Positions 6,201 to 49,906 are shown, numbered from the whole stretch's first letter. The stretch: DNA of 62,892 nucleotides, filler included, from Psammoneis japonica (GCA_008632985.1; 3 parts of 3 records of this genome joined end to end with filler, not necessarily neighbours in it), one strand, 5' to 3'. Translations and numbers: made by a program. The notes: generated from the letters alone by a model not told the origin.

Positions 6201-6225
6201 GCCACGTTTGGATGTGGGGACCCAT

Positions 6226-10692: not shown

Positions 10693-11849
10693 TCATTTCG
10701 AGAGCAGTTAATTATTTTCACGTGCCATCAATCGTTGTATTCATGTGTCCTTCTATAATCAAAATATAAATACATGCATCGCATGGACGATTTTTAGGTC
10801 GCCCTCTTTGGTATCAGGGGTGATACACCTTGAACCTGGCTTGTCAATCGGCTTCATTCGTTCGGCTCACGGATCATACGGCGCTCTTACTTAATATTTG
10901 AGCAAGGCAATTGGAAATCAATGGCCAGGACGGTCGAGGAATCATCATGCCCTGCCTATTGCCTCTTCGCTACGCAATGACTGCACTGAAACACAACACG
11001 TTGTTTTAGGAGTGGATGAGATGAGGAATTCTCCAGGCTTTGTCTCGAGTTTCCTTTTGATGCCCATAAGTTCAACATCGAATGGACCATGCACTGGAAT
11101 GGTATAACCATATTTCAAAAGCTTGAGGTGTAATTGAAGATGTATTGCGAATGAACAGTGGAAAAGAACCCACAGGACTAAGAACGCAATTCAAGGTGCA
11201 CGAACTATTTTGGAAGCTCTTGAAAACTTGAACCAAACTCTGCAACTGGACGAGTCCAACAGAGATTCAAGCAATGATGAAATAGAACTCCTTGAATGTG
11301 GCAATGATGAGACACCAAGTGATGGCACCAGTGCAGCGGCTTGTCCGTCGCAAAATCAACAAGCCCCGGCATTTCACAATGCACATTAGCCCAACTCCTT
11401 GACACCACCACGCACTCTCGACTTGCCATTGCAGTGTGCTCGGTGCTCGTCACAATGACGACTCTAGTCACAGTTGGTGGAACACAGATGTGTCCTCTAA
11501 ACCGCGTAATACCTGCCAGGAAAGAAAATCAAGCAACAACAAGAAGAAGAGGTAAGCGCAGTGGCGACACTAGTAGGAAACGAAGTAGTCGTTCGTTGCA
11601 TGCGCTGCGGGCCATAGAATGCAGACGCCGACACCCAAGGCTCTAGGACAAGAGAATGCGAGTATTTTCAAAGTGATGTGAGCCCCCGAAACTCACAGCA
11701 TGCAGAGAACAGAAATCAAAGCACAAACGCACCAAAAGTGTCCACAGTTTTCCAAATCTCTTGACAACGACAATGATTGAAGAGGCGAAGCTATAAAGAA
11801 CGGAAGGGAACAGCGCTCGCTGTTTTCCAGAAGTCTAAATGGAACCGAC

Positions 11850-16580: not shown

Positions 16581-16903
16581 TAGAATCGATGTCGACACCG
16601 CTCTTTTACGACGGTCAATGTTAGTTCAATGTGGTGCGTTACAAGAGGTGCAAACCAATCTCGATCGCAATGACCACAAGCGTTAGAGTACTCCGGCTCC
16701 TCCTACCGGTGAGGAAAAGCAAGTGCTTGGTCGGTGTGTGAAAGTAAGAGCGCCAGTATGCAAGCCAGATGTTATCGCCCTTGACCTCAGGCGCGGCAAA
16801 ATTCGACAGTGGGATGTTTATGCATATTTTGATGATGAATTAAGCACGACGACTAAAGCAAATGAAGGCACGTGATACTAACCATTCTCTGCTCTCGAAA
16901 TAT

Positions 16904-19169: not shown

Positions 19170-21950
19170 ATTTCTGCACCATGATGTGTGGTTTCGTGAC
19201 TCACTTTTCAGCCACTCATCACTCCTCCAACCTCCCTCCAACACGAGACAGTGAGTCGCATCTGTTGTTTTCATTTTTTCAACAGTTCTTTGCACTTTGC
19301 AGCAACTTCATTTCAGCACAGTGCAAGGATGACTGACAACAACAAGGAAAATGAAATGCCAGCATGGCTTGTGGGTTTGGCGATTGTGTCTCATGTGCAG
19401 CTGCAGTGATTGAAAATTTGGACAAGCTTTCTTGCACGGTTTCTTGAAATGAGCTTTGTTTGCAAAGCCGCACCATGCATTCAAAGCCAGCCACCTCAGT
19501 CGACAGCAATTGGCATGTCTTGGCAGCCAGGAAGGGCATGAGGACAAGCAACAGATGCTTTCACATGGCCAAATGGACCACAGTCAGAGCTGTCATTGGG
19601 TCGAGACTCGAGAGCAGAGCAGCCACTTTTGTTTAAAAAGTTGGCACATGGGCTGTTGTTTTGGCAAAAGCAGCATGGATGTGAGAGTGGCCAAGGCTCC
19701 AGCCAGCATCCTGCATGTTGTTGAGTGGCTTGGTGTGCTGACTGAGTCAGCTGTTCACAAGGCATGCAGGCCTGTTCCAGCTCCAGGTGATCAGCTTTTC
19801 ATCACGAGAGAGGCCGATTTTCTGCACAGTTTGGCACAAATGACTCCTTCAATTTTGATCGTTTTGAAAATCGAAAGGCAAGTGTACACCCAAAAACACA
19901 TGTAAAGTGTACACTTGCCCTTCGATTTGGCAAAAAATGGATTTTGAAAAAGTTAATTGCGCTAAATGCGACAATTTTTGATTGATCAGAATCGAACCTG
20001 TGTGCATCACCTGGAGCTGGAACAGGCCAGCAGCTGTGCATCAAGCACAAACAACAGCTGGCAGAAGAGTGCCAGCGGCTGGCCCAGTGGCTGGGCTGGC
20101 ACTTGCTGCATGGGCAGCAGCAGAGTCATTTTTGTTTTGGCACATCGCTGGCTCAGGAGATCCTTTTTGCACTGCTTTCATGGAGAATCACACACTGCCG
20201 CCACTGCCTGCAACATTGGCCTGGTTGGTTCATCACCTGCAAAGCAGCTGCACAAATGCTCTTTGTCCATTGCAGAGGGCAGCAATGAGGGAGCTGACTC
20301 CATTTGACAAGAAAGAGGCACTTGTTCGTCTTCCTCAGAAAAGCCATGGTCATTCCCTCTCTGCATGGAGAACTTGTTGTTGCTGTGCAAATCCTGGTGC
20401 TGTGGGCTTTGCAAACAGGATGGTGCAACCAACAACCTTCTTTCTTGCAGGAGAGACTTGGCTCCATGACTTTTTAGCTGGTGGTGGGTTGTTGATGATG
20501 TTTCTCACTCTTCACTGCTCAAATTTTCTGACACTCCAATCTGCAAAGAATGCAGAATCCAGAGCAGCAGCAGGGGCCCTGCCGCACAATGTCAAGGACA
20601 AACAAAATGATTGTCACCCTCCTCCACATCATTGTCACACAGTCTTTTTTTTTCAAAGATGCCACGCTGGCAGGTGCCTTCTCTTGTTGAAAGTGTGAGG
20701 AAATGGATGTGCCACCGGCGGTCCTGGAAAAACAAAATGGGCTGATTTGCTCACCAGGTTGTCTGTCCATTGGATGCAAAGTCTGTTGAATTTCAGCCAC
20801 TCACCAAGCACTGGAACAACAATTGAATTTTTGGAAAGACAAACACAGTGGAGTTTGAATGTCAATTTTGGTGACTTTGTCACAATGTGTGACAGGTGAA
20901 ATGCCAGTGAAGCTGTGAGGCTAAATGTCTGTCAAACAGCTGAGTCTTTCAAAGTGGAAATGACCCTTCATTCAGGTCACTGAAATTTTCATGTGTCCTT
21001 GAAACATGACTCAACAAGCAAAGCATGGCATCACAAGCTGCTTTTCACATTTTTGCCTTAAAAATTTTGACAGCGCCTTGATTTGTTTACGTGAAGAGGG
21101 CTGATGCATCAGAAGGTGTCGCACCTCAAACTTTGATCATGGTTTGGCATCATTTCAACCCACCACAGCCATGCAACACAGCAACAGCAGCATGAGCACA
21201 CAAGGCAGCTGCAACAGCACAAAATGGATTTATTTTTCAAACACTTGTGGGTGAATGGAGCAGGATGAAATGTGGTGGTTGCCATCGGACATGTCGCCGA
21301 AGGAGTGCCATTCACTGTCATTGTGTTGTGTGACTGACTTTGGGGGGGGGCAAAACAACATCAAGATGACTTTGTGTCTCCACAGTGATCACAATGCACT
21401 GTGCCACATGAACAACTTGCAATGCAATGGTGTCAACAGATCATTGATTTGTCTCTGACAAGGGCTTGGATTCGCACGCCATTGTTTTGTCTTCTTCCAC
21501 AAAACAAAGCCACCTCAGTGGCACCAAAGGTGAGTCAACGGCCAAAAATATGAACACATCTGTGCTGTCAAAAATGTTGTTTGTTCAATGATGTTGACAC
21601 CTCAACAATTGGATCGCTACAAGGTGCTCACTGCATCAAAAATGTGCCATTGTCGAAACAGCATTTTTGACTTGAAGCATTTTTGCAGAGTTCAATGTTT
21701 CAATGTCTCTATCTTTGAAGATTGTTTGCTTCCTCACCCAGAATTTGTGCTGGTGCCTGCGGCTAAAATGATTTGTTTTAACTTTTTAACTTTCCTGTTT
21801 GGCGCTTTTTCGCTTTCGGGGAGGAACAACCTCGCTGTCTGCCGTCTTTGTGCCGTCACTCTCGGCGGGGGAAAAGCACGAGAGGGCTGAATCGGTGTGC
21901 ATCGTGCGGTCGTGCGCGATGCACGTGATTGATGATGCGATTCCCCTTTC
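19170..21950. other. TpA-depleted domain 3
   Basis: Same signature; the right edge (21790-21950) is CpG-rich yet TA-free. Confidence 0.8.
19769..20028. mobile_element. MITE family C (260 bp)
   Basis: Perfect 23-bp TIR GGCCTGTTCCAGCTCCAGGTGAT / ATCACCTGGAGCTGGAACAGGCC; flanks TGCA and AGCA; internal 22-bp inverted repeat at 19868-19928. Confidence 0.9.
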
Positions 21951-31946: not shown

Positions 31947-33441
31947 GACAAAGAATTGAGATTGACGCGGTAGGGCCCTCTCTAGCTAGTAGCAGCTAGC
32001 TACTTCTATTCTAGAAGTACAGTGCTGTACTCGAGAGCCGGTAGTGAAAAGTGACGCCATTGCCGCCCGCACGCACTGGCATCAAGCGGGTCCGCGACGG
32101 CCGACGGGGGACACACGCGAATCGATCCTCGCAACGGCGCACTGCGCTGCGCACGCTGCCATGGGTGGGGACGCCGTAGAAATCACGTGGGAGCTGTTTT
32201 TTTAGAAAAATTAACCTCGTTGCCCAAATGGACCATGGCGGTCGTCATCGTCGTGACAAAAAAAAGTGTCATCATCACGATTCGTAAGACTCAACGTGCG
32301 TTCACAACGCGCAAGTCCGAGCTTCCATCTCCCACCACAGCCTTCGCCAAGCGACGACCAAATCAACCTGCTGTTTCTCACCAAATCGCTTTCGCGCCCT
32401 CAGGATCATCACAAAAAGTTGCACTTTTGACACCATCATGTCCGCCGTCATCGAATTGGGTGGGGTGCACTGAAGCACAACTTTTGACTGCAATCTCATC
32501 GAGTGATTTTGAAATGTTTGCGGATGTCCACGCAACTCGTTTGAACAACATGCCGTCATCCAAATGGCACTTTCATGAGGCAGAACTGAGACGCCTGATT
32601 GGAACAAAGTCAAAGGATGGCACCTGTCTGCATGCATGCAAGCAGGAAATCCACTCACTGTGTTGCAAAAGGGACATTTTCACAACATCAGGAAGGGCGC
32701 GCACGGACCACAGGGTCTCCCTTGTTGGATCCACTCCGCACAAAGCACTCAACAGAAGAATTGCTCTAAGACTCATTGCTTCAATCATGGATGCCCAGAG
32801 GGTTTCAAAACGAGTCATCTGCAAGAGGATGTCACTGTCTCAAGAGTGCCAAGATGCTTTGCGATCGGGTGTGACATGGAGAGTGGATGGATGCAACTCT
32901 TCTGATTCAACAGAATGGCAATGACAGGAAGTGCAAGCGACCCCACTTTCATTCCAGAATTTCAACAAAGGCAAGTCTCTGACAGCGCAGTCATTGAAAC
33001 AAATGTTGTGCTCTTTTGTCACTTGTTTGCATCACCTTTTCACAGTTGTGTTTCACAGGCACATGCGAGTGCTGCGGTGGGAACCGATCTTGTCGGCTTG
33101 GCTTTGTGATGCCAAAAGGCATGATTGATTCTCTGTTTGTCGCAGAGACATGTCGCTTCTGCAAAGACACTGAAGAGCCCTTTTCTTTTCTTTCTTTTTG
33201 TTGCAAGCTCGTTGACGACAACAATGTCTTTGTGCACAATCGTTCAGATCGTTGCATTGGCAAATGCATCGCTGTTGCATGGGACAAGAGTTTGCTGTCA
33301 AGGGCACTCCAACCAAACAACAAACCCTGTTGACTGAGGATCAACCACACTTCAAGCCGAAGCCACCGTGTTGCAGGAGTTGAGTCATGCCTTCAGCGGC
33401 ACTTTGTGTTTTGCAGCAGCTGCAATGTGCAGCCACCAATG

Positions 33442-33869
33442 AGAGTCAATGCATCACGGCGACGTGTTGCAGCCTTTAAATGTCACAAAGGGCGTGACAA
33501 AAATGACCTTTTGTCTGCATGCATGCTGCACCATGAATTCACAGCGGAGTGGTTCATCTTGCAACCACTGGGCAGGAGGCCAGGGGTTCGAAACCCTGAG
33601 TGGGAGTTGTCTGCAGCAACGTTGATCACTGTCGAACGCGCAAAACTCTGTGCAGTTCTGCATGTTCCTTCGTGCGCACCCACGCTGTTCCGCCAAAACC
33701 GTGCAGTGTCAGCACACGTTGGTGAAGAGCCGCATGGACGCGTGACACATGGGGAGGAGTGCAACACACAGCTGCCAACAAGAGCCAATGCATCACGGCG
33801 ACGTGTTGCAGCCTTTAAATGTCACAAAGGGCGTGACAAAAATGACCTTTTGTCTGCATGCATGCTGCA
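33442..33869 (+). mobile_element. tRNA-derived (Pol III A/B-box) element with about 88-bp direct repeats, copy 2
   Basis: Direct repeats 33442-33529 and 33781-33869; A-box-like CAGCGGAGTGG at 33542; B-box GGTTCGAAACC at 33585 within a CAGGG/CCCTG T-arm. Confidence 0.78.
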
Positions 33870-34004
33870 CAGCAAACCCAGTGTTCTCATTTGGTGATTG
33901 CAGTGGGAACACGTCTGGCTGTGCCTGCTGTCTTTTGTCGGCAATGTGCGAAACAATGGCAGCACTGACTCTCACCCCTCCCTTGAATGACAGTTTGCCC
34001 ACAG

Positions 34005-34690
34005 TTCACGGAGATTTTGCATGGTGGTGACCTTCTTGATCCGATCGTGTCCAAAGGCAAGAACTCTGAAGCTGAAAGCCGCCGAGTCTTGAGACGGTTT
34101 CTCGGTGCTGTTCAATGTCTTGGCGAGGACCGCCAGGTCCTTCACAGTGAGTTGAAGCCAGAAAACATTCCAATGATCGACTGCAATTCTGACGTGGCAT
34201 TGGCATCAAGCTGACAGACTGTGGAGATTGACCAAAAAGGACTGGGGCCTCCTGAAGACCTTTTGTGGAATGCCACTGTGCTTTGCACCCAAAGTGTTGC
34301 AATGCCATCACACGGTTGCTGGGTGAGGAAGTGTGGAAAAAAGGCTGACATGTTTTTGTTGGGAGTCATTCTCCACATCTGCTGAGCAGCATTCCTCCTT
34401 TTGACGGTGACACTGCTGGAGCCGCCAAAGGTCAAGTGACGTTTGTGCCAGATGCCTTTGCCAATGTTTCGGAGGCGGCCAAGGATTTGGCAATTGGGTG
34501 GCTTCGGCCGGACCCAAAGGACCTGTCAGTGGTGCAAGAAGCGCGTCAGCACGAGTGGATGTCGATCGACAATGGAGATGTGCATGTTCATCCTCTGGAT
34601 GATCCCGTTTTGGCCAACTCCCAAGACGATGAGATTGACACAAAGGGACGGAGGACAATGAAACGACTCGCATCGGTTTGCAAACAGAAG
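34005..34690 (+). pseudogene. Decayed CAMK/Chk2-like Ser/Thr kinase fragment
   Basis: GGDLLDPIVSKG, VLHSELKPENI, IKLTDCG, KTFCGMPLCFAPKVL, GKKADMFLLGVILHI, VSEAAKDL and HEW, with frameshifts and stops. Confidence 0.85.
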
Positions 34691-36711
34691 AGGAATCAGA
34701 AAATGTGGACATTCATGAAACTTTAGAAGAGGACTCCACGGTGACAAGCAGAAGGATGCAAACGCGAGAACAGAGGAGACAACAAGTGAACGTGACGTTG
34801 TGAGAGAGGCGAACTGGATCGTTGCTCCAAGGGTGACGGGGAATTCCAAACATAGAAAAGACAAGCAGAAAGAACAAAAAAGGTGGATTTCTTTACACTT
34901 GTAAAAATGTGACCTCAATTTCACCACGAAAACGGCGTGCATTTGTGCTCAGTTGATTTTTACATGGTGAAGTGCAGCAAAATCGAGAAAAGTGCCATTT
35001 CACGTTCTCTCCAACCACGTGGTCAGGTGACTTGGTAGATGCATTGTAAGAGAGAGAGCTTGCACTTTTGATGTCGGTCACCACTGGCATCTTTAAAGCC
35101 ACAACAACATTCCAAAACTACAAACGAGTCAACGTGTGAAAAACTCGAATTTTTCAGTTGTGATTGCACGGCAAAGTGCGGGAAGTCACTTCATTGCTCT
35201 CAATCTTGACAAATGCAAGGCCAATGAAAAAGTTGCACCCCGTTCCAAGCACCTCTGAACACCCTCTGTCGAACAAGGCAACTCTCGTTTTGATCCGAAA
35301 AAATTCGTTTCTGCATGTTTTCTGTGGCGGCCTCTCCCATGGCTGCACTGTGAATGCAACGCAACGCTTGAAAATGGGCTGGGGCATTTTGCGGCAATCG
35401 TCCAGCCACGCAGGCAGCTCCACAGAAATCGTGCAGGAAATGTGCTGGAGTTTGTGTAGATTCCTGTGACGACACAATTCCATTTCTGTGATGACAAGCA
35501 GAAATGCACGGCATTTCTGGCGCACATTGCATGACGACACGAAACAGGGAATCCTCATGATTCCCTCCATGACCCACGAGCAATGAACCATCAGTGGCTG
35601 CTTCTCCAGAGCAGAGAGAGCTCTCTTCTGGCTGGGTGGAGAGCAGAGAGCTGGCTGTTGCTCTCAAACAGAGAGCAGAGACTCTGCTCTAGAGAATGGA
35701 GAGAGGAGCAGGCAGAGTTCTGCAGCGACTGCCACATTTCTTTCGCACTTGACGCACGCAGAAAAATCGACACTGTTTCCCATTTTACATTTTTGTTGCA
35801 CACACTAGAGCACCGGTGGCTGGGCGACAGGTGACACCACTCGGGACTGGGCGTTTTTGCTCCCACTGTTGGGCCCCAGAGACATGTCAACACCATCGAC
35901 GATGCAAGTGTGATCTTCTTTCTTTCTCACTTGCTTGCTTGCTCTCTCCCCTTTTCCAGAGCAGAAATCGCAAGCAAGACCAATGGTTTCAAGGCTGGTG
36001 CATTTGTGGAATGATGAAAGAAAGTGAGCGGGCACCAAACGGAGGTGGAGTTGCCTGAAGCAAGCACCGGCAGCACCTGGGTTCTTGAAGAGTGCAGCAG
36101 TGGCGGCAAACATGACACGGCATTCATCGGGGTGCCTCTCATTTTGCTCTGATGGAAGGAGTTAGAGCTGCCACTTCTTGCAACAATCTGGGGGCTCCAT
36201 GATCTTCAATCTGCAAAGCACAAACCAAAATTAAAACAAGCAAGTTGTGAGAACCCGAGTCTGAATGCAACAAAATCACAGGAAGGAGCGTTCAGCCAAT
36301 TTTGGATTTTCTCTTGCCTCTCTTTTCATGGACACACTCATCAGAGAAAAACACAACATGTCGCACAATGGCATTTTTGGTGGGAAAGGTTAAGCGGCTA
36401 AACAGAGCATTGGTTGTTGCTGCGCAAGTTGTGAGAATAGAGTCAGACAATGGCAGCAAAATCACAGAAGGATTTCTCATCCATTTTTGGGTTTTCTCTC
36501 ACCTCTCTTTTCATTGACACACTCATCAGACAAAAGATTGGAATCTTGTGCAGTTGCATCTTTTGCAGGAACAGCTTTGTTGAAGAAATTGTGCAGCGGC
36601 TGTTGCTGCCACCATGGTTGCTTTTTGAGATGTGTCAAGTCCTGCCGGGTGGGTGGGCCAGGGACACAAACATCCAGTGAGACGGGATGTGACACGCGGT
36701 GCAAAAAAAAT

Positions 36712-38105
36712 GGGCCCTTTGCATTGATTTTAAGGTTTGTCCACATGTCGGCAGATGAGTGAACATGTGATGTTAAAAATTGACACGGGCGGTCCCTTTG
36801 ACAGGCCAAAAGTGAGGGAATGCTGAGTCTCAAGGCACGCACACCTGACACCAACATGATGCCACATTGCCGTTGTTGCGCTGTTTTCTCCTTCGTGATT
36901 CCGCTGTTGCTCTCCCTCGTGGTCACATGCCGACACATTCATTTCTCTGTTGGCTTGCCACCAGTGAATGAATTTTGCAAATGCCATTTTGCTTCCTCTT
37001 GCTCTTCCATTTTGTTGCTTCTTGTGGTGTGTGAGCATTTGCTGAATGCATCTCGTCGTGTTGCTGCATTTCATTGCATTGGGTGCGTCAAATTTTGCCA
37101 TGCCCCTCATTGTGATCGTCTTCCTTTTTCTCTTTTCAGTGGCTCATTGAAGCTTGTGCGTAAGCAACTCATGTGAAGGTGACTAAATCGACAACGCAAC
37201 TCAGTTCCTTCAGAAATGCCGTGTCGTGAAAAAGCAAATCCGAGCGACTTTCAGTTTCTGTCACAGGAGCAGCACTCACAACATGCATCGGCTCCAAAGC
37301 AAGAGGGTTTGCATCTGGCGACTCTTTCATTTGTTGCCACACCCCACACAGCGCATTTCTAATTTTTTGGCTCCATTTCTTCTCCTTGGGCTTGGCATCC
37401 CGCGTCTGTGGCAAATGGCAGTTTCCGTCTGCAGGCACTTAGATTGGCAATGGTGACAACATGTTGCACATCTGGCACCTCTTTGTTGCAGTGCCCCATC
37501 TGACATTTTGGCTCCATTTCTTCACCAAAGCAAGTTGTCCTTTGTTGAAGAAGTGATCTTCCGTGCAGCCACATTTTTCCAATGCGGAGCCCTCGAATGC
37601 TGGAGAAGAGACCTCGACATCAGACTGATTGGGGTGCAGTGCTGGCATGAACTTGGGTCCATTGTGAAGATTCAAAACCGCTCTTGCATGGGAAAAGGAC
37701 AAAATTTAATTCCAATGTCATGGGCTCTGCCATTTCTCATCCTTCTTGCTGTGCCAGAGGTTGTTTCGAGCTGCTTTGCACTCGTGAGCTGTGCAGCTCC
37801 ACACTTCCGTCCAAATTTTTACCTTGCTCTTCAAGGACGCTCTTGAACAGACTCAGCAGTTCTCCACAGATGCAGGTTAAATGATCAGACATGGTCAATG
37901 CAGTTGGTTGGGCAAGAAGTGCTTGTCTTTTCTCTTGCACGATGTGCGCTTGTGTTGGCGCCGCCGCGTCTGGCGCGTGTTGTTTGATTTTTTGTTTTCC
38001 CTCACTTTTGGCCTGTCAAAGGGATTGCCCGTGTCAATTTTTAACATTTGATTTTTGTTTGTGTGCGCATGTTGGATGAACCTTAAAATCAACGCGAAGG
38101 GCACA
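36712..38105. mobile_element. About 1.4-kb non-autonomous DNA transposon with about 110-bp TIRs
   Basis: 36712-36820 is the reverse complement of 37997-38105 (shared TGTTAAAAATTGACACGGGC and CCCTTTGACAGGCCAAAAGTGAGGGAA); no clear TSD or transposase. Confidence 0.8.
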
Positions 38106-40504
38106 AGATCCCTGTGGCCGCCATGTGGGCATGTGCACATCGCATCTGACTGGACATTTGTGTCCCTGAGGCAGGCCTGCAGCTCGACATTCTTCTGGTC
38201 GTCGCATGCGCGCTTTGAGCTTGCAGCCTCTCTCTCTCCCCCTCCTCCTTTTCCTCTTCCTTTTTTCACAAACTTGGAGCCACCTGCGTGACCGGACACA
38301 TGCCCATTTTACTTTTTCGTCTCCACTTTGCCATGACAATGCAGATCCTTGAGTGCCCAAGTTGCTGGGCTGCATTTCAAGTTTTTTGGATCATGAAAAA
38401 TTTGGACATGGTTTGGATTTCTGGCACTGGTTGGTTTCTTGCCCTCTCCCAGCCAGCTGACAAAAAGAAAAACTCTCCAAAACACGGGGGGAGGGGACGC
38501 ATCCCGCCCTTTGGTTGGTTTGCAGCCAACAATGCAGGAAGCAGAGCAGCCCCTGATGCACTGAAGGACAAAGCTCAGAAGCATGTCTCATGTTGCATGT
38601 CTGATGACATGGAGAGAGCTGGCCAAGTTCAAAGCAGCCTTGGCCAACTTTGAGCCTTTTTCATCAGAGGGAGGCACCCAAGGTTTGCCCCCAGAGCTGA
38701 CCCCAAGCATTGGGCAGCAAATGTTGAGACCAAAAGCTCTTCCACACACAAGCAACATCACTGCCCTCACCTTCATGTGACTTCAACAGCTTTTCAGTTC
38801 ATCAGCAGCACGGCTTCTCACTCCTCAGACCCTCTGTTCTTTTGGATGCAAAAAAGCCTCAGACCATGGGTCAGCTTGTGTGTGGCATGTGCACGGCACA
38901 ATGAGCCAAGCCCAAGCAATGTGGTCCCCTGTGCTTTGCTGTCTGACCAGCAAGAATCTCATTGTGCAAGCACAGCTGGAAAGTTTGTGCAATGTCAGTC
39001 TTTTTTTGAACAGCCCTCCATTCAGATGTTGTGCACGCGGGGGTCATTTGGGAGTCTTGGAACTTCAAAAAGTGCTGGAAGCTTCTCCCTGGGTCCTTTT
39101 CCTTTGCAGAGCTTGTGCTGGATGGAGTCAACACACACTCAAAATTTGATTCAAAAATCAATCCAACAGTTGTGAACAACCATCCAATTGTCTCATCTTG
39201 CTTCTGCAACATTCCTTTTCCAATCAGACTCTTAGCTTGGCATGCCTTTTCACCACCGTTGCTGCCAATGCTGGCAAAATGCATCCCGCTCCAGTGCGTC
39301 TGCAACAAGTCAATTGAGCCAGCTGTCACAAGCCACCATTTTTGTTTCCCAAGAACAGCAAATTGCTCGTCAGTTGTCCATTTCTGCTGCCAAGAAAGAT
39401 GAGGCAGCAAATCCCAGCACTGGCTTTAATGCAGATGACAGCCCACCCAGTTTCCCACCTGTGGAAGACCTGGAGCTTTTTCCTGCACCCGACAAAGAAG
39501 CAGAGGAGGAGGATGAACGTGACAACAACTCCTCTTGTTTTGCGCAAAATGTTCCCCAGCACTCTTGCTGCTGTGTCTTTGTCCTCTCCTTGGCATGAGA
39601 CATCTGAAGAATCCACCCTGCCCCTGGATCCACCCACTGTCCCTCCCATCACTGCTGACTCGGACCCCTTGCACTGGGGCGCACCTGATCCACCAACCTT
39701 TTCACTTGCGGAGGAAGCTTTGCCAGAGCTGATCATGCCACGTGACAATTCCGGTGCCACTTGTCAATTTTGCAGTTGGCTCTTGCTCACCCTGTTGCAA
39801 CAATTTTGCAAGAAGCGGAAACTTGATTGTTCCTGGTGTTTTGGGTGGGACTTGTTGGTGAAGAAACTCTGCAAGAAGGTTTTCCTGCCCCAGCCCAACA
39901 CTCGCATCATTGGTGATCAGGAAGTCACTTGCTTCTGCATGCTGGACATGCATGTTGAGAGATTTGTGCCTGCTTGATGTTTGACAAGGAGCAAAATCTC
40001 AACGTGAACAAGTCCATCCAGGCACATTTCCGCAAATTCATTCCTGTTGACTGGACGCTTCTCAACAGGAACAACTGAAGAAAGCTGGAATGTCCCTCCC
40101 ATGTTCTTGAATTGCTCAAGAAGTGAAAACTTTGTCTCCCATTGATTTTCCAATGAGTGCCCCACACAACTCCAGCCTCCTCAAGTCATTCTTCTCTGAC
40201 AATGTCAAGCTCACTGACCTCACATTTTTTTGTTGCTTGGACAACCATGATCCAAGGGCAAAGCCATCCTTGACACATCCAAAAGGAACATCACAATTGC
40301 CTTCCCTCCCTGAGTGAGCTGAGAGCACATTGCAAGCACGACTCCATCTGCCCTGGTTTGCACTCCACTCAACACCAGCCATTGCTGCACTGCAAACCTT
40401 GGGCAGCTGGTGCATTGTGAGAGAATGCTCCAGTGGCTGGCAGAGTCAAAAGGTTGCCCAGCAGTTCACTGGCTCATTCTTTTGCAATGAACGTTGACAC
40501 AAGA

Positions 40505-41720
40505 TGATGCCAAGATGCAGCATCGCTCCTTGCAAAAGACACTCAATGCTGTGTCTTGTAGCGGACTCTGCTTTTTGGCAAAAGGTTGTGAGCAGGGATT
40601 CAGTGTGGGGGCTGTGCACTCCCAAAGAATGACGGAGCTGCTCCAACCTTGAACTCATCACAAAGACCTGGCGTGCGGACCCAAGGTTGATGTGCAAGAG
40701 GCAAAAGTGGCCCTCAAGGAAATGGTCCAGGCTCAAAGTCAAGGAAGCTCTCTGTGGAACATGGGCATGGGACAGAACATCATGAACGCAAGGTCACACA
40801 GGGATGTTGGAAACATGCATGGACCATTTGAATGCAACGAACCCAGGCATTGGCAGACTTGTGCATGGGCTTCAGCTCAAGGACAATCGTGCCTCTGGTC
40901 TGGAGTGGGGGTCAACAACCTGCAACAACTGCAGCTTTTGACATTTTTTGTTGCAGCGCGATTCTGCAATGTCTCAAGAATTGCGTGGGGCAGGCACTTT
41001 TAAAAAAAGGTTGAGCAGCAAGAGGCACAATTGCACCACAAACTTGGCCATTTGCTTGATGTTGAAGACAAACATGTCCACCAATTAATTTCTTGCACTG
41101 CGGAGCTCACACGCAGAATTCTGTGGGCCCAATGTCGCGTGAAGTCCCGCCTGGGGCTGGAGAACGCATCTGCCAAGATGCGTTGTCACTCCTTGCAAAA
41201 GATGCTCAATGCTTGCACTGCGGAGCTCACACACAGAATTCTTTGGGCCCAATGTCGCACGAAGTCCCGCCTGGGGCTGGAGAACGCGTCTGCCAAGATG
41301 CGTTGTCACTCCTTGCAAAAGATGCTCAATGCTGTGTCTTGCAGTGGACTCTCTGCTTTTTGGCAAAGGGTTGTGAGCAGGGATTCAGTGTGGGCTGTGC
41401 ACTCCCAAAAAATGATGGAACTGCTCCAACCTTGAACTCATCACAAAGACCTGGTGCATGCAGACCCAAGGTTGATGTGCAAGAGGCAAAAATGGTGCTC
41501 AATCAAGGAAATGGTCCAGGCTCAAAGTCAAGGAAGCTCCTCTCTGTGGAACGTGGGCATGGGACAGAACATCATGAACGCAAGGTCGCACAGGGATGTT
41601 GGAAACACGCGCGGACCATTTGAGTGCAATGAACCCAAGCATTGGCAGACTTGCGCGTGGGTTTCAGCTCAAGGATGAGCACGCCTCTAGTCTAGAGTGG
41701 GGGTCAACAACCTGCAGTCA
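40505..41720. repeat. Direct duplication (about 40505-40920 and 41291-41720) around a truncated MITE-A fragment with a 120-bp internal duplication
   Basis: Matching ORF text KEMVQAQSQGSS..WN.GMGQNIMNARSHRDVGN in both arms; CTGGGGCTGGAGAACGC at about 41151 and 41271. Confidence 0.8.
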
Positions 41721-41784
41721 GCGGTGTTGACAAAATCATCTTGCAGACTGACAAGAGCATGCGCCCCCTTCAGCACAACAGCAT

Positions 41785-42402
41785 GTTGTCTTCAACTTTG
41801 ACTGTTGGACAGTGTGGTCTCCTGTTGAGTCTCTTGCAGTGACTGGCGGAGCCAAAGATCTGAATCCAACAAAGCAGCAGCAACACCCACGATGCCAAAG
41901 AACACTGTCCAGCTGCAAAGAGCAAACACGCATGCTTTGTTTCAAAGTGGCTGTTTTCATTTTCAAGAACAGAAACACCACGGGACCAAGATGTCTTCAA
42001 CTTTGACTGTTGGACAGTGTGGTCTCCTGTTGAGTCTCTTGCAGCAATTGGTGGAACCGAAGATCTGAATCTGACAAAACAGCAGCAACACCCACGACGC
42101 CAAAGAACATTGTCCAACTGCAAAGAGCAAACATGCATGCTTTGTTTCAAAGTGACTTTTTTCATTTTCAAGAACAGAAACACCGTGGGACCAAGATGTC
42201 TTCAACTTTGACTGTTGGACAGTGTGGTCTCCTGTTGAGTCTCTTGCAGTGATTGGCAGAACCAAAGATCTGAATCTGACAAAACAGCAGCAACACCCAC
42301 GACGCCAAAGAACGTTGTCCAGCTGCAAAGAGCAAACATGCACGCTTTGTTTCAAAGTGACTGTCTTCATTTTCAAGAACAGAAACACCATGGGACCAAG
42401 AT
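41785..42402. repeat. 205-bp tandem repeat, 3 copies
   Basis: TTCAACTTTGACTGTTGGACAGTGTGGTCTCC at 41791, 41996 and 42201. Confidence 0.92.
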
Positions 42403-43052
42403 GACCCCCAATTGCAGAGACTGCTTTTTAGTGAAAACAATGCCGAGACCCAGCAGCTGCTCTTTTTGGCCATTCTCCAACTTTCCTGCCTTGTCCCAAG
42501 CTTGCTTTTGATTGTTCAACCAAGCTCCAAGTCTCTTTCCAATGTCAACGTGAGGATGAGGCACTTTTCAATTTCCCTCGTGCACCGCAAATTGTCCAAG
42601 ATGAGAAAACACAATCTCCCGTTGATTTTCCAACAAGTCTCACTCCATTCCAGCCTTCTTCAGTCGTTTCTGTCAAGAGGCGTCCAGCTTGCCCTTCCTT
42701 TTGGCTGTCCTTCACTTGACTGGCCAACTTCCAAGGTTCTCCCCATTCCCCATCCTCTTTGTGATGCCTTGGCAGGTTGCAATGGTGTCCCTCCCATTTC
42801 TTGAATTGCTTCAGAAGAGAGAACATTGTGCCCCATTGATTTTCCAACATGCCCCACTCAACTCCAGCCTCCTTGAGTTTTTCTTCTTTAAAGTGTCAAG
42901 CTTGCCAAGCTTGTGCTCTCGTCATCATTGGTCATCCAACCAAATTCCAAGGGCAAAGCCATCCTCAATGCATTTGTTGGGAACATTGCAATTGCCTTCT
43001 CTCTCCAAGCAAACAAGAGTGGGCTGCAAGCACGACTTCATTTGTCATCGCA

Positions 43053-43442
43053 GACGCGTTCCAGCTCTAGGTGGGACCTCGCACTGCTGAACTGTGACAT
43101 CGATAGTTTTTTGGATCGCACCGTATGTCGCGCACGTAGAAAGGTACGTGACTTTTGTGAAATTTTGTATCATTTTGTGGTGCACTTATTGAGCGATCCG
43201 TCCAACAACTTTTGACATTTATTTCTTCTACGCCATTCTTAAATGTCTTAAGAATGGCGTAGGGCAGGCGCATTTGCAAAAACGTCAAGTGGCAATGGTC
43301 ATAATTGCACCACAAACTTGGTCGTTCATTTGATGTTGAAGACAAAAATGTCCATCAATTAGATTCTCGTAATGCGGAGCTCGCACGTAGAATTCTACGG
43401 GCCCGATGTCACAAAAAGTCCCACCCAGGACTGGAACCCGTC
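43053..43442 (+). mobile_element. MITE family A, young copy (390 bp, TSD CGCA)
   Basis: TIR GACGCGTTCCAG..GGTGGGAC / GTCCCACC..CTGGAACCCGTC; CGCA at 43049-43052 and 43443-43446; removing it restores the host frame WSVCDDK. Confidence 0.92.
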
Positions 43443-44558
43443 CGCACACGCTCCACATGACACCAGCCTTTTTGAGCTTTTGTTTGAGAGAAATGTCCAG
43501 CACCCCACTCTTTTTGGCCTGTCTTTGTCTGTTCAGCCAATTCCCCAAGTTCACCCCTCCATCAAGAACGTGGCCATGACAAATGTCGCAACTCCCTTTG
43601 TGGTCTGCAGTGCAAGAGCAAACCACATGTGCGATCCCAGGAACTCTTGTCCTTGCATTCTCTGACTGCCCCACCCACATGATGACATCCCTCATTTCAA
43701 AAGACACCAAATCAGGAAGCACAAAGGAATCGAGGACACGAGGAGGGAACTCTTCACCCTTCAAAGGCCTGTGTTTGGGCAAAATGCATTTCGATGGACT
43801 GGCGGCATCGGAGTTGTTTTCATTCAGGGCTGGAACACACGTGTCAGGGTGTGCAACTGGGCCAGCCAAGCCGTCGTGTGTGAGTTGTTGAAGGGCAAGG
43901 TTTGGAGTTGGCTCCAGCAGATGCCATCTCACTTCACAATTTTGGCCAGTCCTTTCATTCTTTAAAACAGAAACACCACCAAGAACCAGCAGATTCCTGC
44001 ATTGCAGAGACTGCTTTCTAGCAAAAACAGCGCCAAGATCCAGCAGTTGACTCTTCTGGCTGTTCTTCAGTTTTCCAGCCTTCCATGCTTGCTTTTGATC
44101 TTTCAACTAAAGCTCGAGTCTCGCTCCATTTTCAATGTGATGAAAAGGCACTTTGCAGCTGCCTTCGCACACCACAAACTGCTCGAGAAGAGAAAACACA
44201 GTCTCCCACTGCTCAGCCCAAATGCCCCACTTAACTCCAGCCTTCTCCAATCGTTCCTGTCTAGAAGCACTCAGTTTCCCTTTCCTTTTGTCTGTCTGTT
44301 GCCTGTTCAGCCACACTCCAAGATTCACCCCATCCTCTTTGTGACCCTGCAGCACCCTGCAATGGCCCTCACACACCACAAACTGTTTGAGAAGAGAAAA
44401 CACAGTCTCCCATCTCTCAGCACAAATGTCCCACTCAACTCCAGCCTGCTCCAGTTGTTTCTGTCAAGAAGCGCGCAGTTTCCCTTTCCTTTCATTTTTC
44501 CTTTGCATGCCCAACCATCTTCCAAGGTTCTCCCCATCCTCTTTGTGACCCTGCAGCA

Positions 44559-44954
44559 GACGCGTTCCAGACGCAGGTGGGAATCCGTGTGACATTGGGC
44601 CCGTAGACTTCTACGTGCGAGCTCCGTAGTAAAATTATACGGTAATTAAAATGTCAATGATCGCCAACAGAAAATGAGGCAATTTTGCGAACGCACAAAC
44701 TCGCACATGATTGAAGTACATCATTTTTTACTCAGCCAGTTACATTCTTCAGACATTGAAGAATGTAACTGGCGCATTATTGTTTCTATAAATTTGTTAT
44801 ATAAAACGTCTGGGGCTTCGCAAAACAGCGAGTCTGGACAATTTTTTTTAAATGTCACACGTAGAAATCTACGTACGAAACATACGACGGATGATAAAAA
44901 TTATTGTTGTCACACGTCAGCACTACGAGCTCCAACCTAGGGCTGGAACGCGTC
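44559..44954 (+). mobile_element. MITE family B, young copy (396 bp, TSD AGCA)
   Basis: Perfect 12-bp termini GACGCGTTCCAG / CTGGAACGCGTC; AGCA at 44555-44558 and 44955-44958; the empty site matches the paralogous HA unit at 44341-44370. Confidence 0.93.
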
Positions 44955-47103
44955 AGCACCCCACAATGGCCCTCATGTGCCGCAAATTGTTCAAGACAAG
45001 AAAACACAGTCTCCCATTGATTTGCCCACAAGCCCCACTCATCTCCAGCCTCCTTGATTTTTTTCTTTGTCAATGTCAAGCTTGCCAAGCTTGTGTTTTT
45101 GCCATTGGTTGTCCAACCAAATTCCAAGGGCAAAGCCATTCTCAGCGCATTTCTTGGGAACACTGCAGTTGCCCCCTCTCTCCAAGCAACCAAGAGCATG
45201 CTGCAAGCACGACTCCATTTGTCATCGTTCACACTCCACTCAACTCCTGCCTTCTTGAGCACTTGTTGACAAAAAACATCCAGCACCCCACTCTTTTTGG
45301 CCCACTGTTGTCTGCCCAACCAATGCTCCAAATTCACCCCCTCCTCTTTGTGGCCATGGCGAACTTTGCAACTCCCTTCGCAGTCTCCATGCACCAAGAG
45401 CAAATCGTTCATGCAATCCCAGGAACTCTTGTCTTTGCATTCTCTGATTGCCCCACGCATGATGCCATTTGTCGTTTCCAATGGCATCGAAACGGGAAGT
45501 GTGAAGGAATCGAGAACACAAGGAGGGTGCTCGCATTCCTCCAAAGGCCTTCCCAATCTGTTGCTCTCTTCAATCACAAACAAGACATCCTCGCACAATT
45601 TGGGATCTGGACCAACCATGGCCTCAAAAGCAAGAGCAAAACTTTCACGTCCATTGACATCCTCAGACAATGATTCTTTGTCAGAAGAAGCTGGAGCAGG
45701 AACAAGAACACAACCACAGTTTTTGTCACAGTCCCTTTCTGGCTCACACATCCAATCATTTGACATGCAAGGACTGAACTCCGAATGGGATCAGCCATCA
45801 CAGCCAACTCTCAATCTGCCTTGTCAACACCTGCAGCCAGTGATTTGCAGTTTGCAATGACAGATTTGGGTGCAGACTTTGCTCTCAACAAAACCTTTTC
45901 CCATTTTGCAACAGACATTTTTGGGCTGCCGCTGACAGGAAATGTGGCAATGTCATCCTTCAAAAGGAGTCAAGAGGAGTCTGCAAACGCCTGTGCCTGG
46001 GAATTTGCAGAGTGAGGCGAGACTGCATGACTCACATTGAGTTTGTGAAAAGCTGCTTGAATGGCAAAAGGCACCAGGGGACACATTGAAAGATTGTTTG
46101 AATCGACGGGCGTGCAGTCACAGATTTTGCCTCAATCTGGAACGCACAGCATGACAGGAACCACAATGTTGCACTCCGCACTTTCCTGCAGCATCTTCCT
46201 CTTGATGCGCGGCCCAAACAATGGCTCATCATTGAAGCTCCAAACAGCTGCAGCTTTGTGAGCCGCAGCATTGTCACCCCTTTTTGGCAACAGAGTTTGT
46301 GCTCCAAACTTGTCAAGCTTGGATCCCAACACGGCAACTTGCTTTGGAGATTTGGTGCATCAACGAGGGGTGGCCGCAAGAAAAAGTCGACAGTCAATGG
46401 GAAGGACGCCATTGCAGGGACCGCAACCAAACAAATTGCCAGCACCTTCCATCTCGTGTGCTTCATCAAAGATGCCAAACCTGATGCTGCCACCCAGCTT
46501 GTTTGAAGCCTTGCCAACCTTGGGCAACAAGTTGCATGTGCAGCTGACAAACTGCAACTTGTCATCATTGGAAGAAAGAAATGCTGCAATCTCATCGACA
46601 GATGTTGTGCATGCCTCGGATTGACTGGCTTGGCTCGCCACAATCAATCTCAAGTGAGGCACATTGTCAAATGCTCTGGATGAATCCAAGACTCCCAGCA
46701 TCTGATCCACAAGTGCAAGCTTTGGTGTTGCATGAGTTGCCGCTTGCACCCCTTTGAGTCACAATCTTGCAAGCGTTTTGAGGCTCAGCAATGTTTTGCC
46801 CCATTCCGGGGGAAGCTGAACATTGGCTTGGCAATGTTTCTTGTCTTCAGATGATTTCAGCATGCCAACCACACCTCCATTTGAATTGCTCCCTCTCCCT
46901 GCGGAGGATTTGTTGTCCTCTCCACAGCAGTGACTTGCAAGAGAGTCAATGACATCATTGTGTTGACCACCGCAATCTTGACAGCAGCAGCTTTCTTGAT
47001 TTTCTGCATGTGACGCTTTGATCTCTGAAGAACCTGTTTTTGTTCTTTGATCAATCTTGCTGGCAACAGTTCTGTGATCTTGTTGCAGATGCTCAATCCC
47101 AGA

Positions 47104-48174
47104 GACGCACTCCAGGTGCAGGTGGCAATCCGTGTGACATTGGGCCCGCAGAATTCTGCTTGCAAGCTCCGCAGTGAAATCATCAGGCAAGTGACACGTC
47201 AATGATCGCCAACAGAAAATGATGCAATTTTGCAAATGCACAAACTCGTCTGTGGTTGAAGCACATCATTTTCTGCTTGGCCAGTTGCGCTCTTCAGACA
47301 TTGAAGAATGCACCTGGCTTGTTTGTGTTCCCATGATTTCATCAAATGAGATGTCAGGGGATGCGTTCCAGGTCTGGGTGGGACCTCGCGCCACTGAACT
47401 GTGACATCGACAGTTTTTTGAATCTCATCGTATGTCGCGCATGCAGAATTCTATGTGATTTTTTGACATTTTGTGTCATTTTACGGCACACTTGTTGAGC
47501 GCTCCGTCCAAAAACTTTTGACATTTTTTGTTGCAGCGCGATTCTACAATGTCTTGAGAATCGCGCAGGGCAGGTGCATTTGCAAAAACGTCGAGTGGCA
47601 AGAGGCACAATTGCACCACAAACTCAGCAGTTCATTTGATGTTGAAGACAAACACATCCATCAATTAAATTCTTGCACTGCGGAGCTCGCACGCAGAATT
47701 CCACGGGCCCAATGTCACACGGAGTCCCACCTGGGGCTGGAACGCGTGTCAGGGGTTTCGCAAAACAGCGAGTCTGGAACAATTTTTTGAAATGTCACAT
47801 GTGGAAATGTGCACACAAAACATGCAACGGATGACAAAAAACAACTGTGTCACACGTCAGTGCTGCGAGCTCCCACCGACGGGTTCCAGTCCCAGGCGGG
47901 GCTTTTTTTGTGACATTTGCCCCGCAGAATTCCACGTGCGAGCTCTGCAGCTCGCACTCTGGTCAACAGATGTGCTCATCTTTGACACAAAACAAACGGC
48001 CAAGTTTGTTGCACACACATCTCTGTTCGTACTTGCAGTTTTGGACAGTGCGCCTGCCCTGCGCCATTCTCGAGTGTCTCGAGAATGGCGCAGAAGAAAA
48101 AAATGTCAAAAGTTGTTGAATGGATCGCCTGACAATTGCGCTGCAAAATGATGCAAAATTTCACCAAATTCATG
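47104..48174. mobile_element. Nested MITE cluster: old B copy (47104-47359 plus 47751-47877) with A copies at 47360-47750 and 47878 to the gap (reverse)
   Basis: Colinear with the 44559 and 43053 copies; AGGG flanks both sides of the 47360 insertion. Confidence 0.85.
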
Positions 48175-48274
48175 NNNNNNNNNNNNNNNNNNNNNNNNNN
48201 NNNNNNNNNNNNNNNNNNTTAATTAATTAANNNNNNNNNNNNNNNNNNNNNNNNNNNNNNNNNNNNNNNNNNNN

Positions 48275-49906
48275 GGCAGTCTCCCTCTCGGCCGATGGAG
48301 CAGGAGTGAACGAGACGGTCGTAGTCACTGGAGTCGAACTCAAAGAGTCGTCCACAGGTGCACACCACATGCCGCAATAAACCAGCTCGTTAGGGTCAGA
48401 GGGTTCGTCTGTAGGCGGAGACGTCGTCTGCTCGGGAGGACCAAAAGGAATGCCCGAAGAGGGGTCCGACACAGCAGATAAATTTGCCGCAGCGGTGGTT
48501 TCGGTGTTGACAGACGGTTTCCCGGTGTGTTGAGCGGAGGAGTGGCCTTGACACATGCCCTTCTTGCCCGTTTCCTTGTTCACACACTTGTCGCACCAGT
48601 GCCAGGTCGTGCCTTTCTCGTCGGTGACAGTGGCACCTTTGTGAACGAAACGCCAGGCCGGCTTGGGTGGTTTCTTGGAAGGGTCAGTCTTCCGGACATC
48701 CGGAGGGTCATCCTTGGACTTGTCCGCCGTGCCCTTTTTGTCCTTCTTGCATTGCTCCTTGCAGGTGGGACACGTGCGTTTGGTGTGCCCAACCTTGCCA
48801 CAGCCGCAGCAATGCTTTTCCGAGTTGTCCTTGGCGAGGTTGGATTCCGGGAGCTTGGCTGCTAAGGCAGGCCAATCTTCATCGCTAATGAGTTCGCCAT
48901 GGGTCTTGGTGATCCAGCCAATGAGGCCAACAGGTCCAAGATCCGCACAGTCGGCATCCTTGGGGACTTCTGCCGGGTCACGCAAGCGACATTTGCGCTC
49001 CAAGCGCTTGACGGAGTCGAGCTTGGCAAAAACTTGACGATTGAAAAACTCGGAGGATGTCTTTGACACCTTAGATAAAACAGCAGACCCAGTTTCAACT
49101 GGCAACGCACAGTCCGTCTGCATGATCTTGAGCAGGCGCAGAGCTTCGGTTGCAAGCTCGGTGCAGTCTTCGCCAGGGCAGTTGTCCAGAGTTAAGTCGT
49201 TCAACTTTTCCTTGGCGGCCTTGACGTCAACCAGAGCACTGGCGTTGCAGGTGTCCAGAGCCATCATAAATGAGACAGACCCCGGAAGATCCTTGCAGTT
49301 CTTCAAGTGATTAAACTTGGTTTCAATCTTTTCACGGAAGGTTTCGGTGATGCGCGACTTGACGATGAGTTGTGACAAGCCGATGTCATCGATTTCATGC
49401 TGATCGTAGCCTTCGTCACCTGCAGCCGCCACACGGGTCTCACATTCCTTCTCAAGGTCTTTGACAGTGAAGGCGTGAAGATGATCAAAAAGGTGCACGA
49501 CCTTGCCGTCGACTTTCTTGAGATGGTAGAAAGTTTCTTGTCCGTGCGACTCGATTGAGTCCTGAATGGTCTTGACGAAGTGGTCTTTGTCCAGTTCAGC
49601 ACTGGAACCGTTGGACAACTCAATCTGGCCGTTGAACTTGGATGTGGTTGCCGAAGCGAGTTGATCTCTGAGAGATCGCTCGACAGAGTCGACAGCTTTC
49701 GGATGGCGACGTTGCGAGGCAAAACGGCAGGTGCGGGTGTCGGTCTGCTCGCACTTGTTGTTCAGAGCCGAACCACCCAGATGCACTCCATGAGAGTGGT
49801 GGATGCCGCCGCGAAGCGGCGTGGGGATCGTAGGAGGGTTGGTCGAGGTTTGCATCTTGGCGAAGGCCTCAGCAAACATCTTGACGGTGTCAGGATCCAT
49901 GGACAT
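48275..49906 (-). mobile_element. Ty1/Copia-type (diatom CoDi-like) gag ORF, truncated by gap
   Basis: CCHC knuckle CCGCGKVGHTKRTC; second motif WHWCDKC...HSSAQH; upstream LTR/PBS-like region. pol is not visible, so the superfamily is inferred. Confidence 0.75.

Follow-up and report, generated by a model that had tools for sequence, protein, structure and literature searches.

A window of 63 kb, that is, the whole stretch of DNA analysed (62,892 nucleotides, filler included), from the diatom Psammoneis japonica (GCA_008632985.1) contains two copies of a miniature inverted-repeat transposable element (MITE), here termed MITE-B, one of which is rich in TA dinucleotides and the other devoid of them. 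Judged from their sequences, these copies probably record a directional mutation process that acts on DNA in place, is targeted to particular regions and converts TpA to TpG or CpA. The observations on the two copies, on related elements and on an inverted duplication in the same window demonstrate the direction of the change, its dinucleotide context, its action on both strands and in place, its regional confinement and its separability from the decay of CpG.

Paired and nested MITE copies and the direction of change

The younger copy, MITE-B young, is located at 44559..44954 (+) and comprises 396 bp with 27 TA, 26 CG and a GC content of 41.9%, forming a TA-normal island within TA-free DNA. 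The 12-bp terminal inverted repeat (TIR) GACGCGTTCCAG is present at both of its ends with AGCA on either side, and position 44559 is its first base, contigs from other copies ceasing to match exactly there. The older copy, MITE-B old, has its first base at position 47104. Both start positions had been placed correctly by the first-pass annotation, in which the old copy was nevertheless taken to be contiguous. It is split by a nested element, MITE-A2 (47360-47748), into a left part at 47104..47359 (+) with 0 TA and 8 CG and a right part at 47749..47877 (+) with 0 TA and 5 CG, and is then cut at 47878 by another element, MITE-A3. The last ~17 bases of MITE-B old are missing because MITE-A3 starts at 47878. 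Its GC content is 46-48%, versus 41.9% in the young copy.

The two copies were aligned pairwise with the nested MITE-A2 omitted. All sequence differences quoted in the first-pass annotation could be found in this alignment, and the two TA-free blocks that it had described as unchanged were seen to be identical. Every aligned TA of MITE-B young (27/27) is a dinucleotide other than TA in MITE-B old, whose TA count is 0. The outcomes at these sites were 11 TG, 11 CA, 2 GA, 1 TC, 1 TT and 1 AA, in keeping with the earlier statement that the old copy has TG or CA at nearly every TA position of the young one (22 of 27, the other five being non-TA as well). One base was altered per TA, amounting to 27 mismatches in 54 bases, and none of the 54 aligned TG or CA dinucleotides of the young copy had become TA in the old one. 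The comparison of substitution by dinucleotide that had been suggested at the outset therefore gives 27/27 changed TA against a mismatch of 16% outside TA and CG contexts (46/288 bases; 23 transitions and 23 transversions). At this background rate the probability that all 27 TA would be altered is ~4e-15, and a comparison of TA with other contexts per base gave p = 2.4e-7 (Fisher). The pair also contains 24 aligned CG, 11 of which are retained and 10 of which are TG or CA.

The TG and CA outcomes are interspersed along MITE-B old (14 runs in 21 outcomes), and no clustering into strand runs was found in the pair by permutation (p = 0.91), which bears out the view that both strands are hit within one copy. 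At five sites the two copies differ as CA versus TG, a pattern expected if TA had already disappeared from a few positions of the young copy itself. A scan of metagenomes with a 24-base conserved block of MITE-B returned 0 matches.

MITE-A and MITE-B have common termini and share ~70 subterminal bases. Five MITE-A copies were recognized in the window. The recent copy MITE-A1 at 43053..43442 (+) measures 390 bp, with 17 TA, 24 CG, CGCA on both sides and the same 12-bp terminus, its ends being set by the loose ends of contigs from other copies at 43053 and 43442. MITE-A2 at 47360..47748 (+), nested in MITE-B old and flanked by the direct repeat TCAGGG, has 5 TA and 23 CG and represents an intermediate stage; the duplication beside it is 6 bp, or 4 bp with 2 extra bases. 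MITE-A3 at 47878..48174 (-) adjoins the right end of MITE-B old, is cut by the assembly gap at 48175 and has 1 TA and 15 CG. The old copy MITE-A4 at 5425..5805 (-) has 1 TA and 7 CG, and the partial old copy MITE-A5 at 40932..41161 (+) has 2 TA and 8 CG over 266 aligned bases (40900-41165). Identical 100-base spacers at 23817-23916 and 48175-48274, each consisting of 44 N, TTAATTAATTAA and 44 N, are artificial contig joins, so that the loss of the ends of MITE-A3 and of the right end of MITE-B old reflects an assembly gap and not biology. Further N runs are present at 6623-6847 and 55475-55596.

The assignment of these elements to MITEs is based on their length (390-396 bp), their TIRs, 4-bp flanking duplications in two copies, the lack of a long open reading frame (ORF) of their own and thousands of copies by summed depth. 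TIRs and short target duplications indicate that MITE-A and MITE-B are DNA transposons without a reverse-transcribed stage. The window showed no autonomous partner of these elements. Abundance was estimated by matching the contigs of one sequencing run from one sample to positions 43000-45000; 4110 contigs matched, 473 of them at least 99% alike and 1121 at 95-99%. The summed word depth over the young MITEs was 40,000-330,000, versus ~56-900 in the flanks. The young islands are rich in CpG, with an observed-to-expected ratio (O/E) for CG of 1.49 at 43101-43400 and 1.37 at 44601-45000, indicating that a fresh copy is richer in CG at insertion than host genes are.

Since a pair of copies alone cannot show which state is derived, the direction of change needed extra evidence. 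The first-pass annotation had taken the TA-rich copy as the ancestral state, and four independent lines of sequence evidence, namely the site patterns of MITE-A, nesting, the tyrosine columns of a helicase pseudogene and variants across the whole family, agree in supporting TA as ancestral and TG or CA as derived. An alignment of the five MITE-A copies contains 43 variable sites with a pyrimidine-purine step in all present copies (at least 3 of 5). TA is kept in at least one copy at 14 variable pyrimidine-purine sites, and both TG and CA occur among the other copies at 10 of these 14, for example CGTAGAATTCTACGG / CGCAGAATTCCACGG / CGTGGAATTCTGCGG; another 12 sites show CA and TG only. TG and CA at the same sites point to TA as the ancestor, since each is one transition from TA and two from the other.

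Nesting provides the relative age at a single locus, and TA retention agrees with its order. The host element, MITE-B old, has kept 0/27 TA, and its inserts MITE-A2 and MITE-A3 have kept 3/17 and 0/12 of the TA sites of MITE-A1; MITE-A1 and MITE-B young, as islands within TA-free DNA, keep 17 and 27 TA. The altered sites of MITE-A1 are TG or CA at 11/17 positions in MITE-A2 and 8/12 in MITE-A3, and MITE-A4 has kept 1/15 with TG or CA at the other 14/15. Set beside general divergence, TA was kept at 3/17 sites in MITE-A2 (11% diverged), 1/15 in MITE-A4 (17%), 0/27 in MITE-B old (16%) and 0/12 in MITE-A3 (23%).

Evidence from a coding relic is supplied by the helicase pseudogene at 45703..47109 (-), to the right of MITE-B young, which is of DEAD/ResIII/Helicase_C type by its homologues and forms a single frame with 5 in-frame TGA, 0 TA and no Tyr codon. 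Three homologues with 42-56% identity were used for comparison. At the 9 columns with Tyr in at least two of the three, Tyr is absent from the relic, which carries Cys at 5 of them and His, Thr, Ser and Val at 1 each (p = 1.4e-5). Cys and His at Tyr columns are what a change of TAY to TGY or CAY would yield, which argues that TA was ancestral in the relic. At 22 Arg columns the relic has Gln 6 times, Trp 2 times and Cys 2 times, as expected from CpG decay. In the family as a whole, four of the five MITE-A1 variants listed turn a CA (by C>T) or a TG (by G>A) of this copy into TA, and the family depth with TA where MITE-A1 has CA or TG is 79%, 29%, 50% and 45% at the four listed sites.

Regional confinement, flanking context and CpG decay

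Over the whole window the TA O/E is 0.33, and those of CA and TG are 1.43-1.44. A two-state segmentation assigned 31.4 kb of the 63 kb to TA-poor blocks, in which the O/E is 0.03-0.14 for TA, 1.32-1.83 for TG+CA and 0.23-0.87 for CG; the blocks in between have 0.55-0.64, 1.12-1.22 and 0.86-1.01, respectively. The TA-poor blocks are located at 501..8300 (TA O/E 0.04, CG 0.25, TG+CA 1.83), 11801..16600 (TA 0.09, CG 0.23), 19201..21700 (TA 0.07, CG 0.26) and 32301..49900. The last is a super-block whose sub-blocks (32301-34800, 35101-43100, 43401-44600, 45001-48200 and 48501-49900 by segmentation) have a TA O/E of 0.03-0.14 and a CG O/E of 0.37-0.87, and it is interrupted only by TA-normal islands at 34801-35100 and 48201-48500, the latter beside the gap, and by the two young MITEs. 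These MITEs appear as TA-normal islands of 300-400 bp, and block edges are sharp, down to the MITE ends; between 44939 and 47430 there is no TA over 2.5 kb. CA and TG are about equally frequent in TA-poor kilobases, and no strand asymmetry of note between them was seen per kilobase in these blocks.

Evidence that decay is regional and takes place in situ comes from a ~10-kb inverted duplication between 8.6 and 19 kb, whose arms are of the same age. Its sulfatase arm at 8581..10795 (+) and the partner at 16798-18981 (-) are TA-normal, whereas the inner arms at 12863-13684 and 14684-15567, inside the TA-poor block 11801..16600, are TA-poor. The sulfatase arms, at 15% divergence, have 57 shared TA and 4 sites discordant between TG and CA in 2171 bases, TA being altered about as fast as the sequence in general. 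The inner arms, at 20% divergence, have 1 shared TA and 21 discordant sites in 784 aligned bases, which is 15-fold more (Fisher p = 2.6e-9). As the inner arms have decayed and the sulfatase arms have not, the decay took place after duplication, in place, and was regionally targeted. Moreover, the 2.2-kb sulfatase duplicate (83% identical) lacks the signature, so that duplication as such is not the trigger. The MITE-B pair had been called the cleanest internal control in the window, which is fair for that pair, though this inverted duplication is equally good.

The two sulfatase genes, 83% identical, differ in that one is an intact ORF of 638 aa and the second is broken into a pair of overlapping ORFs. 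Among named organisms, bacteria carry the closest relatives (Verrucomicrobiota, Opitutae, Pontiellaceae, ~50% identity), and the gene may thus have been acquired from bacteria.

The normal blocks hold two sulfatases, a WD40 protein, a ZIP transporter, ALG11, a Ulp1 protease and a TRMT11-like methyltransferase. In these gene blocks the TA O/E is 0.64 outside long ORFs (661 TA in 14.4 kb) and 0.54 inside them. The sparing of gene blocks including their non-ORF DNA places the targeting at the level of chromatin or silencing domains and not of sequence alone. Among the 96 ORFs of TA-poor DNA, one has a Pfam match (the helicase-associated domain, HA), and no viral genes were seen. Long ORFs are expected there by chance, because only TGA stops remain.

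TA survival depends on the flanking bases. The 116 surviving TA of the TA-poor blocks were compared per kilobase with the 1180 TA of the normal blocks, which served as a proxy for the ancestors of the TA-poor blocks. Retention was highest for TTAA (0.64; p = 2e-16 versus all other contexts), followed by CTAA/TTAG (0.27), CTAG (0.13), GTAA/TTAC (0.09), CTAC/GTAG (0.07), GTAC (0.05), ATAA/TTAT (0.04), ATAG/CTAT (0.02), ATAT (0.009) and ATAC/GTAT (0.006). From TA retention against divergence in MITE-A2 and MITE-B old, the rate of TA loss is estimated at ~15-20x the background rate per site and that of CpG loss at ~4-5x, on the assumption that the old branch accounts for most of the divergence.

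The change of CG to TG or CA occurs in the same TA-poor blocks, some of which have a CG O/E of 0.23-0.26. TA has been lost and CG kept at 32301-34800 (TA 0.03, CG 0.65) and 48501-49900 (TA 0.14, CG 0.87). The half-decayed MITE-A2 still has 23 CG, versus 24 in MITE-A1; having lost most of its TA and kept nearly all of its CG, it indicates that TA loss is much faster than CG loss. CpG decay is thus a second process, slower and separable. It would most simply be explained by deamination of 5-methylcytosine in the same domains, at a rate several-fold lower.

A 400-bp inverted repeat pair at 6226-6622 and 33470-33869, whose members are 93% identical, lies in two different TA-poor blocks. Five of its 24 mismatches are sites discordant between TG and CA, the same decay signature in another repeat family.

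Proposed mechanism, alternatives and known systems

Conversion of TpA to TpG or CpA would amount to an A:T to G:C transition, whichever strand is hit. A MITE would insert with a normal or high content of TA and CG, and in a targeted domain its TA steps would be lost one by one, on a random strand and without strand runs. An enzyme targeted to chromatin domains would act on chromosomal DNA at TpA without processivity, most likely by deaminating adenine to inosine, which would then be copied as G. The end state would be blocks of kilobase length in which TA is nearly absent, CG is scarce and TG and CA reach twice their expected frequency. Granted the core process, enzymatic adenine-to-inosine deamination at TpA has about an even chance of being its chemistry, as has been suggested for Bigelowiella natans. 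We infer a targeting signal and a role in defence against mobile or foreign DNA.

Several points weigh against this interpretation. The polarity of the MITE changes is drawn from five copies in the window and four family-wide sites, rather than from a consensus of the whole genome. Mobile or foreign DNA as the target is shown for MITEs only, with a Pfam match in 1/96 of the TA-poor ORFs. No deaminase or other enzyme was seen, no search aimed at one having been possible. The 16% divergence of the MITE-B pair, with transitions and transversions at 23:23, means that part of the difference may lie between subfamilies and not have arisen after insertion. The two young MITEs are untouched 2-4 kb from the partly decayed MITE-A2, so that the process is not steady here at present and would be slow or episodic. 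In addition, susceptibility was modelled as depending on the base that follows the edited A (3' T > C > G > A). This model roughly fits the contexts of the surviving TA, but the strand struck in the MITE data was as predicted in 11 cases and not in 8 by hand count, and the model was dropped. With this prediction failing, the flank effect looks symmetric, a property of the double-stranded tetranucleotide.

There is a small but appreciable chance that the same targeted process at TpA uses chemistry on thymine, in which T would be modified, for example to 5-hydroxymethyluracil, and mispair with G or be mis-repaired, giving T>C. Thymine-modifying enzymes prefer TpA in some protists. A strand-symmetric signature (TG and CA at 11 each in the MITE-B pair and similarly frequent in the blocks) is compatible with this route, A>G being indistinguishable from T>C on the opposite strand, and the symmetric flank dependence (TTAA 0.64, ATAT 0.009) suits recognition of double-stranded TA by either kind of enzyme. 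Nothing in the window is specific to it, however, and the only published proposal found for the signature is adenine deamination (10.64898/2026.01.13.699255). An explanation without targeting, by a genome-wide neutral bias against TA with the TA-normal blocks under purifying selection or younger, is improbable. TA retention does fall with general divergence in MITE-A2, MITE-A4, MITE-B old and MITE-A3, and even the normal blocks have a TA O/E of only 0.55-0.64. Yet purifying selection is at odds with the higher TA O/E of non-ORF DNA in gene blocks (0.64) than of ORFs (0.54), and youth with sulfatase arms that lost TA at the general rate beside inner arms of the same age with 15-fold more TG/CA discordance; the sharp block edges, down to the ends of inserted MITEs, likewise speak for targeting.

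The remaining two alternatives deny, respectively, the direction of the change and its action in place. That the TA-rich copy is the derived one, C>T at CpA (G>A at TpG) having made TA in the "young" copies in the manner of repeat-induced point mutation (RIP), has next to no chance of being right. TA versus CA and TG is indeed the RIP dinucleotide pair read backwards, and the MITE-B pair alone gives no direction, but C>T at CpA cannot yield from one ancestor the 10/14 MITE-A sites with both TG and CA. TA has fallen to 0 in the older host element but persists in the younger elements nested within it; Tyr of the homologues is Cys or His in the TA-free relic; the TA-rich blocks carry ordinary host genes at a TA O/E of 0.55-0.64 and a CG O/E of ~0.9-1.0; and the 83%-identical 2.2-kb sulfatase duplicate is without the signature. 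It is very improbable that the changes arose elsewhere, either as differences between master subfamilies or by reverse transcription of transcripts edited from A to I in an ADAR-like manner. The 16% divergence outside TA and CG, with equal transversions and transitions, does suggest some difference between subfamilies, transcribed MITEs would fold into hairpins through their inverted-repeat ends, and ADAR enzymes, according to the preprint text, prefer U before the edited A (10.64898/2026.01.13.699255). DNA transposons with TIRs and short target duplications nevertheless lack the reverse-transcribed stage that this would need, the same decay is found in DNA that has not transposed (the inner arms and the helicase pseudogene), it follows nesting order at a single locus, and TG and CA are interspersed, unlike the strand runs left by one edited RNA strand.

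Targeted, in-place mutation at TpA has one published counterpart. A literature search for the signature in diatoms or elsewhere found only the 2026 preprint on Bigelowiella natans. In mutation-accumulation lines of this alga, 231 mutations were recorded in an integrated giant virus and virophage; of these, 230 were A>G or T>C, each falling on a TpA (Mettrop et al., bioRxiv 10.64898/2026.01.13.699255). The TpA mutation rate was ~1000x background, in some lines only; 124 TpA-poor clusters were counted in ~95 Mb, with a TA O/E of 0.45 for the viral region, and an ADAT2-like adenine deaminase was proposed (10.64898/2026.01.13.699255). The process inferred here resembles that one in that nearly all changes are A>G or T>C and fall on TpA, which becomes TpG or CpA according to the strand, in its confinement to regions beside normally mutating DNA and in its long-term footprint of clustered windows depleted of TpA and enriched in CpA and TpG. 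It is not constitutive either: only some B. natans lines were active, and here the young MITEs are untouched beside decayed DNA. The sequence data thus point to the same signature and regional confinement in a second, distantly related host. The differences are that the host genes here are diatom-like and belong to a different supergroup branch, that the footprint is heavier (about half of the window at a TA O/E of 0.03-0.14), that the substrates are MITEs, a helicase pseudogene and unannotated DNA and not recognizable viral genes, that TpA loss is coupled with CpG decay, and that the process is known here from its historical footprint alone, without measured new mutations. The main text of the preprint makes no mention of diatoms, MITEs or flanking context (10.64898/2026.01.13.699255), and the hierarchy of flanks with TTAA spared is described here.

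Three better known processes share some of these features. RIP of ascomycete fungi changes C>T at CpA, which makes TpA and lowers GC. Like RIP, the process seen here degrades repeated or mobile DNA by dinucleotide-specific transitions and leaves aberrant blocks beside normal genes; unlike RIP, it runs in the mirror-image direction, TpA being destroyed and GC raised (41.9% in the young and 46-48% in the old MITE-B), and duplication alone is no trigger, the sulfatase duplicate keeping its 57 shared TA. CpG decay through 5-methylcytosine deamination occurs in methylated transposons, and CG has likewise turned into TG or CA in the same blocks (10/24 CG in the MITE-B pair), but that process cannot touch TA. 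Judged by TA survival, the flank preference in this window (3' T > C > G > A) differs from the pattern of ADAR. According to the preprint text, ADAR hyper-edits double-stranded RNA, and ADAT2-type deaminases have been reported to edit DNA (10.64898/2026.01.13.699255). Both share with the signature a change of A>G with U or T preferred before the edited base, and they offer a candidate chemistry; unlike ADAR, the process inferred here must work directly on both strands of the chromosomal DNA where it lies, and its outcomes show no run clustering. RIP, CpG methylation decay and retro-copied RNA editing were accordingly rejected as candidates, the first for its opposite polarity, the second because it cannot touch TA and the third because the elements are DNA transposons and non-mobile DNA has decayed too.

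Further features of the window and wider meaning

The HA (PF03457) repeat region at 43285..45790 (-) consists of two tandem paralogues with 204-bp units and is TA-free save for the two young MITEs. Tandem repeats of ~204-205 bp, corresponding to HA units, are found in TA-free DNA at 41787-42403 (93% identical) and 44148-44555 (82%). Together with the helicase, this region reaches ~4-16x single-copy depth in the contigs of the run. An open frame of 554 aa at 48275-49936 (-), with a CCHC-like zinc-knuckle motif and no Pfam match, has a TA O/E of 0.14 and a CG O/E of 0.87 and may represent a gag-like remnant that is partway through decay. The Ulp1-type protease ORF (PF02902) at 50813-52051 (+) has an intermediate TA O/E of 0.34-0.40 and may be part of a partly decayed mobile element. 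In a search of proteins of 516-2000 residues, the named sequences closest to the ALG11 fragment all came from centric diatoms (Thalassiosira, Skeletonema, Discostella, Cyclotella cryptica models, Cyclostephanos and Mediolabrus; 49-55% identity). The top unnamed match reached 63%, and those from animals and brown algae ranked lower at 37-53%. Long ORFs free of introns and the many HA repeats also suit a diatom, so that the genes are likely to be those of a diatom-like stramenopile; an atlas search with the TRMT11-like ORF carried no taxonomic information.

TpA-specific regional A:T>G:C hypermutation in a nucleus has been described only once before, in one chlorarachniophyte (2026 preprint), and a second, distant host would show that the phenomenon is not peculiar to one species. 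In this window the process has reached saturation in half of the 63 kb, and the material combines nested MITEs as dated substrates, same-age controls in an inverted duplication, a hierarchy of flanks and a clear separation from CpG decay. These natural controls are better than those in the original B. natans system. The thousands of MITE copies constitute a built-in clock and a set of substrates for determining the rate, the flank rules (ATAT best, TTAA spared) and the enzyme, and comparing the gene content of signature-bearing hosts with that of others could help to identify that enzyme. Practical consequences follow for annotation as well: TA-free blocks, being without TAA and TAG stops and Tyr codons, yield long ORFs that are spurious and can lead both gene callers and methods of repeat dating astray.

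If true, a natural DNA adenine editor working on double-stranded chromatin would be of interest to both genome defence and base editing. More speculatively, this diatom, or diatoms in general, might possess a DNA editor, targeted to chromatin domains, that removes TpA from either strand of silenced DNA. Acting alongside the decay of methylated CpG, such an editor would leave mobile and junk DNA with essentially only CA and TG as pyrimidine-purine steps. With the signature also present in a rhizarian alga, it might represent an old form of genome defence by adenine (or thymine) editing, the mirror image of fungal RIP and possibly spread across the whole of SAR (stramenopiles, alveolates and Rhizaria).

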